Shown here: positions 33,802-34,712 of the stretch, one piece after another
Position numbering within the stretch: the first letter of the stretch is position 1
Layout: each line of letters begins with the position of its first letter
Origin: Escherichia coli
GTDB taxonomy: Bacteria; Pseudomonadota; Gammaproteobacteria; Enterobacterales; Enterobacteriaceae
DNA: 64,000 nucleotides
Assembly (NCBI RefSeq): GCF_003334335.1
Contig: NZ_QOWQ01000029.1
Reading direction: 5' to 3' (one strand)
The notes under the pieces: model-generated
The model's database searches: none
Told to the model about the DNA's origin: nothing
What the model saw: only the letters and a program-made list of their open reading frames with translations
Position numbers and translations under genes: made by a program

Positions 33802-34070
33802 TTAATAAATGGCAATTTTTACAAAGAGATAATAACGTAGATTGAAACAATATGTATTATTGATTGAGTAAACGGGATTATTCTTCACACTACATCCATT
33901 TTAGTGTCACTACCAAAGAAAAAGGGGCTACGTTTTCATGTAACCCCTTGATTTATTTGGTGGGCTGGCAGTGACTGAATTGGTGCTGTAATTGGTTGAA
34001 ATATTTCATCTAATGTCTGGTTCAACTTTCCTTAGCTGCCTGAAAGTTTTTTGATCTTACCCAGCAATAA

Positions 34071-34140
34071 CAGCGTTACGGTGCACCACGCCTGACTGAA
34101 GAACTGCGTGCTCAGGGTTACCACTTCAACGTAAAACCGT
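34071..34140 (+). mobile_element. IS3-family (IS911-like) transposase orfB fragment
   Basis: Translation [22 protein letters not shown] preceded by an in-frame stop; only about 23 codons remain. Confidence 0.55.
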
Positions 34141-34164
34141 GGCAGGAGGTCCGGACTGAAAAAA

Positions 34165-34375
34165 CTGGTCAGGACATCATCGGCAGGGAACGCACTGCTA
34201 GTCTGTAAACTGAACCGACTGGGGCGCAGTATGTGGCATCTTGTCGTGCTGTTGGAGGAGCTGTGCGAACGTGGTATTAACTTTCGTGCTCTGGCCCAAT
34301 CTATATTTGCCCAACAATGGGGGGACGAATGCTGTAAAAGTAAAACAATCTGCGATCTCAAAGTTATTGTGTGAT
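34165..34375 (+). pseudogene. pinH: Pin/Hin/Gin-type serine invertase remnant
   Basis: Translation KLNRLGRSMWHLVVLLEELCERGINFRALAQSI resembles the catalytic core of DNA invertases; N-terminus is missing. Confidence 0.65.
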
Positions 34376-34712
34376 TTTTATGTGAGCAGAAGATATTCAT
34401 CAGAAACGATTATGTAAATCATTTTATTTTGCCAACGGCCTCATTGTCGAAAGAAAAGAATACGCCCGTATTTCCTGAATGGATTGACTTTTTTATCCAA
34501 CCACACTTCAGCGCACTGCGTTTAAAAAATGCCTCATTCTTATGCGGAATATCATCATTTCATCATGATGTCTTTGATGAGCGGTGAACACAATACACTT
34601 GCGCTGTCTCTTCAGGATGAATCCCCTGGTCTGGTGCCTGTGGGCTGATGTTGCAGCAAAGCTAAGGTCGCTTAAACGCTACTCAGTATTCACTTTTCAG
34701 AGGATGAAATTT

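Follow-up and report, generated by a model that had tools for sequence, protein, structure and literature searches.

A non-functional IS3-invertase relic beside ypjA in Escherichia coli, probably inert debris of ancient mobile elements at ssrA

Positions 34052-34321 of the window (the whole 64,000-nucleotide stretch of E. coli DNA that was analysed) are best explained as a non-functional composite relic that joins a doubly deleted IS3 to 175 nt from the interior of a phage-type DNA invertase gene, the fragment known in K-12 as pinH. We assign a probability of about 0.88 to this explanation as a whole. Judged from its sequence, the IS3-invertase scar near ypjA appears to be inert ancient genomic debris and neither a working nor a recoverable switch. 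It would be a relic without a present mechanism, each determinant for inversion or transposition being gone: the nucleophile region and the helix-turn-helix domain of the invertase, its crossover sites, and the orfA, the DDE domain and the right end of IS3. The invertase component is already known as an annotated pseudogene; the IS3, ssrA-tip/terminator and island-end relics are small unannotated details of familiar kinds. A literature search found nothing that discusses the origin of K-12 pinH. The features discussed are, from left to right:

33896..33957, minus strand: orphan ssrA-type intrinsic terminator, an attP-type sequence that follows ssrA where a P2/Fels-2-like prophage is present
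33958..33971, minus strand: relic of the ssrA 3' tip, 14 nt (att core copy), TGGTGG-GCTGGCAG against TGGTGGAGCTGGCGG in ssrA
33972..34051, no strand assigned: relic of the right (integrase-distal) end of a CP4-57-like island, the target DNA of the IS3 insertion
34052..34069, plus strand: left terminal inverted repeat of IS3 (nt 1-18), 18/18 identical to TGATCTTACCCAGCAATA and occurring once in the window
34070..34143, plus strand: IS3 orfB fragment (nt 544-618, 75 nt) by alignment to IS3, with a 1-nt deletion in an A run; encodes the 22-letter transposase-like peptide
34135..34374, plus strand: extent of the annotated K-12 pseudogene pinH (b2648), mapped from NC_000913.3 2783065-2783304 at 100% identity
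34144..34146, plus strand: IS3-pin deletion junction, 3 nt assignable to neither side; IS3 ends at GGC (34143) and pin starts at 34147
34147..34321, plus strand: interior piece of a Pin/Hin-family DNA invertase gene, matching pinE nt 123-302 (codons 42-101)
34328..39303, plus strand: ypjA cassette (upstream region and ypjA, 34713-39293), context outside the scar

The original prediction described two truncated peptides, one transposase-like and one like a serine invertase, separated by stops within some 350 bp. Both exist as described, in different plus-strand frames bounded by stop codons; the frame 34041-34390 encodes the transposase-like 22-letter peptide and the frame 34042-34390 the invertase-like KLNRLGRSMWHLVVLLEELCERGINFRALAQSI. 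Their similarity to a transposase and to a recombinase is far above chance in database, profile and BLAST comparisons, and the juxtaposition of two truncated and dead mobile-element genes, one for an IS3-family transposase and one for a Pin/Hin-family invertase, is thereby upheld. An antisense open reading frame of 122 aa (34032-34400) also spans the relic.

The IS piece belongs to IS3 proper. It matches the reference IS3 at 85.4% over 96 nt (blast, E=3e-25) and the IS3 and IS3H copies of Shigella and E. coli plasmids at up to 90.9% over 87 nt; the NCBIfam profile transpos_IS3 recognizes the 34-aa peptide only weakly (E=0.006, 15.9 bits against a cut-off of 160). The peptide had been called IS3/IS911 orfB-like, of which the IS3 half holds and the IS911 half does not, the matches being to IS3 and IS3H, and an exact left terminal repeat is present besides. 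Compared with the 1258-bp IS3, a member of the IS3 family, the relic keeps this exact repeat (nt 1-18) and orfB nt 544-618 at 85-91% identity, and 93% of the element is gone. Across the 64 kb, blast matches to IS3 are limited to nt 1-18 and 531-626; nt 19-543 and 619-1258 are absent from the window, which thus contains no orfA, no frameshift site, no DDE region (the retained orfB piece lies upstream of it) and no right terminal repeat. Both IS3 junctions lie at internal positions of the element (nt 18/544 and nt 618) and are therefore ordinary deletions rather than joints made by the transposase. A patch of microhomology, TTACCCAGCAATA against TTACCCGGTCAAA, is found at the edges of the nt 19-543 deletion, and the deletion that reaches into pin has taken away the right end of IS3 and its flank, where the second copy of a short target-site duplication would be expected. 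The sole genuine transposition joint is the left end, which at 34052 sits in island-end DNA; the left terminal repeat is kept in all four divergent alleles that were aligned.

The second component corresponds to K-12 pinH. MG1655 is 100% identical over 33800-34700, and the position of pinH between ypjB and ypjA agrees in gene order. The annotated pseudogene starts 12 nt inside the IS3 remnant and ends about 50 nt beyond the pin homology, whereas PGAP labels 34138-34305 in other strains as a partial "recombinase family protein". A tblastn search of the window with PinE of prophage e14 returned a single match at 34135-34305 (aa 38-94, 68% over 57 aa, E=2.9e-19), and blastn with e14 pinE gave 83% over 147 nt (E=4.5e-39). 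At the amino-acid level the identity is about 75% over codons 42-101, with 36-38 of 49 PinE residues identical in the four alleles, and the conserved segments KLDRLGRS and ERGINFRSL are retained. The homology can be relied on as far as about 34293 and is probable from there to 34321, where 17 of 26 positions match when counted by eye from the alignment; a 4-bp deletion lies near 34295. The invertase peptide reported originally is thus Pin/Hin-like, but it starts too late, the homology running from 34147 (pinE nt 123), and its terminal AQSI lies past the 4-bp deletion and out of frame with pin.

Relative to the e14 PinE and the Fels-2 and P2-like invertases of the Hin/Gin/Cin/Pin group, the relic shares codons 42-101 at 83% nucleotide identity and has neither codons 1-41 nor codons 102-184; the two 26-bp crossover sites are gone, together with the invertible tail-fibre segment. 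Missing are the first 122 nt of the gene, in whose 5' part the Fis-dependent recombinational enhancer of such invertases lies, and with them the catalytic serine region (codons 1-41, nucleophile at about residue 10); no N-terminal pin sequence occurs anywhere in the window. The C-terminal helix-turn-helix DNA-binding domain (codons 102-184) is absent as well, the DNA homology being over by 34321 (codon 101), and the window contains neither a tail-fibre segment nor a second pin sequence. The closest intact relatives are the tail-fibre invertases of tailed phages, which adjoin phage tail-fibre genes, and Fels-2-like phages are found among the best protein matches; in nucleotide sequence pinH resembles e14 pinE slightly more than it does the Fels-2 invertase. 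The name is also used differently elsewhere: papers on O157:H7 use "PinH" for the intact invertase that prophage CP-933H encodes, a collision with K-12 pinH.

Pfam Resolvase (PF00239), which matches the pin piece at E=3.3e-9 over model positions 48-103 of 145, covers resolvases and invertases alike, and the NCBIfam matches of the fragment are weak and mixed among serine recombinases, so that a piece of a transposon or plasmid resolvase of the Tn3 or gamma-delta type might be considered in place of a DNA invertase. The identity to e14 PinE given above, in nucleotides and in residues, opposes this assignment, as do the plasmid and phage searches: beyond the locus itself the best matches are all annotated as hin, pinE or DNA invertase at 67-73%, and 3342 of the 3790 matching plasmid records fall below 60%. 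We regard a resolvase origin as exceedingly improbable.

The islet had been taken as formerly mobile DNA, and independent support for this lies directly to its left, in an orphan ssrA-type terminator, a 14-nt ssrA tip and the end of a CP4-57-like island. A terminator scan placed the first of these on the minus strand at 33949-33922 (AAGGGGTTAC...GTAGCCCCTT TTTCTTT), and the sequence shares 93-95% identity with the attP regions of Fels-2, SopEphi, RE2010, SEN8, Cartapus and 500465-1. Its nature was exposed by a search for the empty site, in which a synthetic join of the ypjB-side flank to ssrA was found at 80% coverage in 0 of 5426 genomes; the search revealed instead that the flank is a Fels-2-type terminator, the join having a contiguous 98.3% match in genomes that carry a P2-like prophage (ogr, gpD, tape measure) beside ssrA. 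The ssrA tip agrees with K-12 psaA, the attR of CP4-57, at 13 of 14 positions, and a 1-nt deletion is common to both. With the alignment register set by this tip, the island end agrees with the right end of K-12 CP4-57 at 43 of its first 62 nt (binomial p of about 1e-9), and blastn gives 74% over 77 nt, a similarity that is modest overall (69-74%). When compared with all E. coli genomes the island-end segment is essentially single-copy at this locus, with one informative relative: in strain CU42ET-1 an island encoding CbtA, YeeU, DUF987 and RadC has as its true end a sequence 80.6% identical to 33963-34029.

The likeness to the CP4-57 attR therefore consists of the same tip with the same deletion, followed by homologous island-end sequence, and the difference is that here only about 80 nt of the island end are left, without integrase or cargo. 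Between the att copies no integrase gene or island cargo was found, the open reading frames of at least 150 aa from 33972 to ssrA being ypjA and an antisense frame (36740-37348) inside it. The outer flank differs too, being a spacer in the K-12 attR and a Fels-2-type terminator here. The strain of the window lacks prophage CP4-57, and ssrA (39454-39816, minus strand) follows directly after ypjA, 5.1 kb to the right of the relic. The part of the window that extends from ypjA to gabD runs opposite to the K-12 MG1655 sequence and shares 99.9% identity with it.

The original prediction further proposed that an IS had hit the invertase gene, which was then deleted, and that an ancestral invertible switch near the adhesin gene ypjA was possible. 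If so, IS3 would have transposed into an invertase gene that ran a phase-variable ypjA switch, and later deletions would have left the scar. Invertase-controlled switches of surface structures are known in enterobacteria, Hin and flagellin being one, and some 390 nt separate the Pin-family fragment from ypjA, which follows it on the same strand. Part of the scenario stands, since a deletion did fuse the interior of IS3 to the interior of pin; the insertion of IS3 into pin lacks support. The outer flank of the intact IS3 left end is the terminal ~80 nt of the CP4-57-like island and not pin, no other pin sequence exists in the window, and the two internal junctions of IS3 are both away from the IS termini. 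The 26-bp hix/gix/pix consensus, allowing up to 3 mismatches, gave 0 matches in the 64 kb, whereas in e14 and Fels-2 the same pattern picks up the two sites on either side of the invertible segment. Inverted repeats within 33000-40000 are weak, chance-level pairs of 14-21 nt, none of which sensibly brackets ypjA or its promoter. As noted above, every close intact relative is a tail-fibre invertase of a phage, and the ypjA cassette is a discrete unit: its left edge, at 34325-34328, lies 4-35 nt past the end of the pin homology, and an internally deleted paralogous copy at ymgJ-ycgI, next to minE, matches 34328-34683 (89%) and 38949-39303 (96%) with no pin beside it. A pin-controlled ancestral ypjA switch is thus unsupported, and the history built on it is very unlikely.

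Under the composite-relic explanation, we propose that IS3 entered a CP4-57-like island some 80 nt inward of its right end; the island itself would have belonged to a tandem array of elements at ssrA. Williams reportedly described tandem-island traffic at this tmRNA gene in 2003. A non-transpositional deletion toward ssrA would then have removed IS3 from nt 619 on, the island body and the DNA up to pin codon 41, and a second, small deletion at the microhomology patch may have taken IS3 nt 19-543. The portion of pin past about codon 101 would have been lost where the ypjA cassette now begins. The pin gene would have lain closer to ssrA than the island end, and it plausibly came from a Fels-2-like prophage. 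This source is plausible because ssrA is the integration site of such phages, whose Pin-family invertase gene lies about 7 kb from it and runs antiparallel to it, and the orientation of pinH relative to ssrA is the same as that of the Fels-2 invertase; the slightly greater nearness of the pinH nucleotides to e14 pinE speaks against it. Moreover, the island end stands between the Fels-2-type terminator and ssrA, so that a simple array formed in situ needs at least two Fels-2-like integrations, or another source of pin. Intermediate forms that could order the deletion events were not found: there is no intact IS3 at the site, no empty site and no copy outside E. coli.

In a broader and more tentative reading, to which we give somewhat less than even odds, the ypjB-ssrA interval may be the fossil of a tandem array of at least three ssrA-targeting elements, namely a Fels-2-like phage, a CP4-57-like island and the DNA that carries ypjA, which IS3-associated and other deletions collapsed before E. 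coli diversified. In that case pinH could be the last trace of a Fels-2-like tail-fibre inversion system, and the terminator at 33896-33957 that of another such prophage.

The scar is carried by 3004 of 5426 complete E. coli genomes (~55%; query 33850-34600, coverage at least 80%). Four alleles were aligned, in which the relic segments are 88-96% and the flanking segments 89-99% identical to the window, and the three junctions (left repeat/orfB, IS3/pin and pin/cassette) are the same in all of these alleles, whose identity spans 88-98%. Damage is particular to each lineage: the stop codons of PCN033 and M12 differ in position, and in PCN033 the RSG and LVCKL of the window still read RPG and VVWKL, the ancestral state. 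Identical junctions in diverged alleles, together with lineage-specific damage, argue for a single ancient event followed by neutral drift, so that the scar appears to have formed once, in the ancestor of the carrying E. coli lineages, and to have decayed neutrally since. In no genome does an intact IS3 occupy the position of the relic. Five genomes have recent full IS3 copies elsewhere, which in the three examined lie at 34086, 34197 and 34552 in the same orientation, and IS1 is present in one strain; full copies inside or near the scar indicate that the region tolerates disruption. Among 100,044 species representatives the IS3-pin junction was not found outside E. coli except in two contigs, one of Terrisporobacter and one of a Planococcaceae MAG, both rejected as E. 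coli contamination (98.9-99.9% identical to the window).

These data also bear on an origin by transfer, in which the pin and IS3 fragments arrived already fused on a foreign segment, for example a plasmid or the island of another strain, and recombined into the site. Such an arrival would suit the Fels-2-type terminator on the far side of the CP4-57-like end, which is unlike a simple in-situ array, and the 150-nt ssrA-proximal spacer at 39303-39453, which in CU42ET-1 is contiguous with other DNA; it would also suit the allelic divergence across the whole locus, which is unusually deep (~10%). The fused junction, however, is on no plasmid, mislabelled chromosomes and chromosomal fragments aside, and is absent from the representatives of other species, and we consider a pre-fused arrival unlikely.

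Retention in 55% of E. coli genomes with unchanged junctions, at an intergenic position upstream of ypjA, could alternatively mean that the relic has been co-opted as a promoter, a regulatory site or a small protein (e.g. the 47-aa open reading frame 34231-34374) acting on ypjA. The independent stops and radical changes of the separate lineages argue otherwise, and the divergence of the pin piece, at 5-12%, is at least at the level of the flanks and not lower than that of ypjA or ypjCB. A promoter scan found no promoter-like site on the plus strand, no Rfam family matches the relic, and it accommodates complete copies of IS3 and IS1 in several strains. The reduced-genome strain DGF-298 is viable despite a deletion of the entire region, which is therefore dispensable (PMC10652928). 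Co-option is accordingly highly improbable.

The biological weight of the scar is small, since it is probably inert and its main component has already been annotated, and nothing in it calls for a search for phase variation of ypjA. For annotation hygiene, the IS3 remnant (34052-34143) is unannotated both in RefSeq K-12 and by PGAP, the att/terminator relic is likewise unannotated, and the edges of the pinH feature differ from those of the homology. The junction, apparently of single origin and common to about 55% of E. coli genomes, may serve as a stable phylogenetic marker, and the locus offers a worked example of how successive integrations at ssrA and deletions would leave layered debris beside an adhesin gene.

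The DNA to the left and right of the pinH scar (window 34052-34321, an IS3 fragment fused to an internal fragment of a Pin/Hin-type invertase gene) is composed of the following features:

32428-32910: ypjC
33010-33801: ypjB
33896-34051: orphan Fels-2-type ssrA terminator, 14-nt ssrA 3' tip and the end of a CP4-57-like island (about 80 nt)
34328-39303: ypjA cassette, a discrete unit of ypjA with its 385-nt upstream region
39304-39816: stretch from ypjA to ssrA, a 150-nt spacer and then the tmRNA gene ssrA

Taken together, the terminator, the ssrA tip and the island end at 33896-34051 look like a fossil attR that dates from an earlier integration event at this tmRNA locus, ssrA. 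The group lies 5.4 kb away from the real ssrA, and its 14-nt tip has a 1-nt deletion in common with psaA, the attR of the CP4-57 prophage in K-12; the K-12 annotation holds no feature for any of the three pieces. In strain CU42ET-1, an IS66 sits about 70 nt into the homologous island end (about 4068-4120 of that locus), which is near the insertion point of IS3 in the window's own relic, about 80 nt from the tip.

CP4-57 is absent from the window strain, and the 150-nt spacer between ypjA and ssrA is identical to the K-12 flank past psaA. The same spacer connects to the glaH side in CU42ET-1, a strain without window 28654-39302 (ygaQ, ileY, ypjCB, the scar and ypjA). Synteny with CU42ET-1 ends at 39303, the same point as the right seam of the ypjA cassette, which is the start of a terminator hairpin. 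A paralogous copy of the cassette occupies the ymgJ-ycgI locus beside minE (positions 3005-3713 of L010); the equivalent of window 34684-38948 is gone from this copy, and both cassette ends are retained with 89% and 96% identity.

ypjC and ypjB are the halves of a single gene, ypjCB (32428-33801), which is unbroken in other strains as an ORF of 1374-1455 nt; the window carries the K-12-type allele, in which an internal stop divides the gene. The ypjCB-pinH-ypjA locus exists as deeply diverged E. coli alleles, with identity down to about 90% between window 32400-36000 and the loci of three other strains (L007, L008 and L009). Such divergence of about 10% is probably well over that typical of the core genome.

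A 539-nt contig (coverage 0.74) of the Terrisporobacter mayombei DSM 6539 assembly and a 2799-nt contig of the Planococcaceae MAG UBA3370 match the locus at 98.9-99.9% and are almost certainly E. coli contamination. The 13,989-nt 'plasmid' pLR-25_3 (NZ_AP027503.1) is made of chromosomal pinH/ypjA-region DNA and copies of IS1 and IS3, and must therefore be a misassembly or else a circle excised from a chromosome; several 'plasmid' records of 4.8-4.9 Mb in PLSDB are chromosomes. The 'PinH' of E. coli O157:H7 papers is an intact 22-kDa invertase of prophage CP-933H, a different gene from the K-12 pseudogene that shares its name (PMC3936929).

At least three strains have acquired a full-length IS3 independently and recently, either within the relic or close to it:

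L020 2187 (window 34086): recent IS3 insertion
L021 2298 (window 34197): recent IS3 insertion
L022 2650 (window 34552): recent IS3 insertion

All of these copies share the orientation of the relic IS3, and IS1 is also present in or near the relic in one strain. In L020 the match to the window is lost past the new IS3, which suggests an IS3-associated rearrangement.
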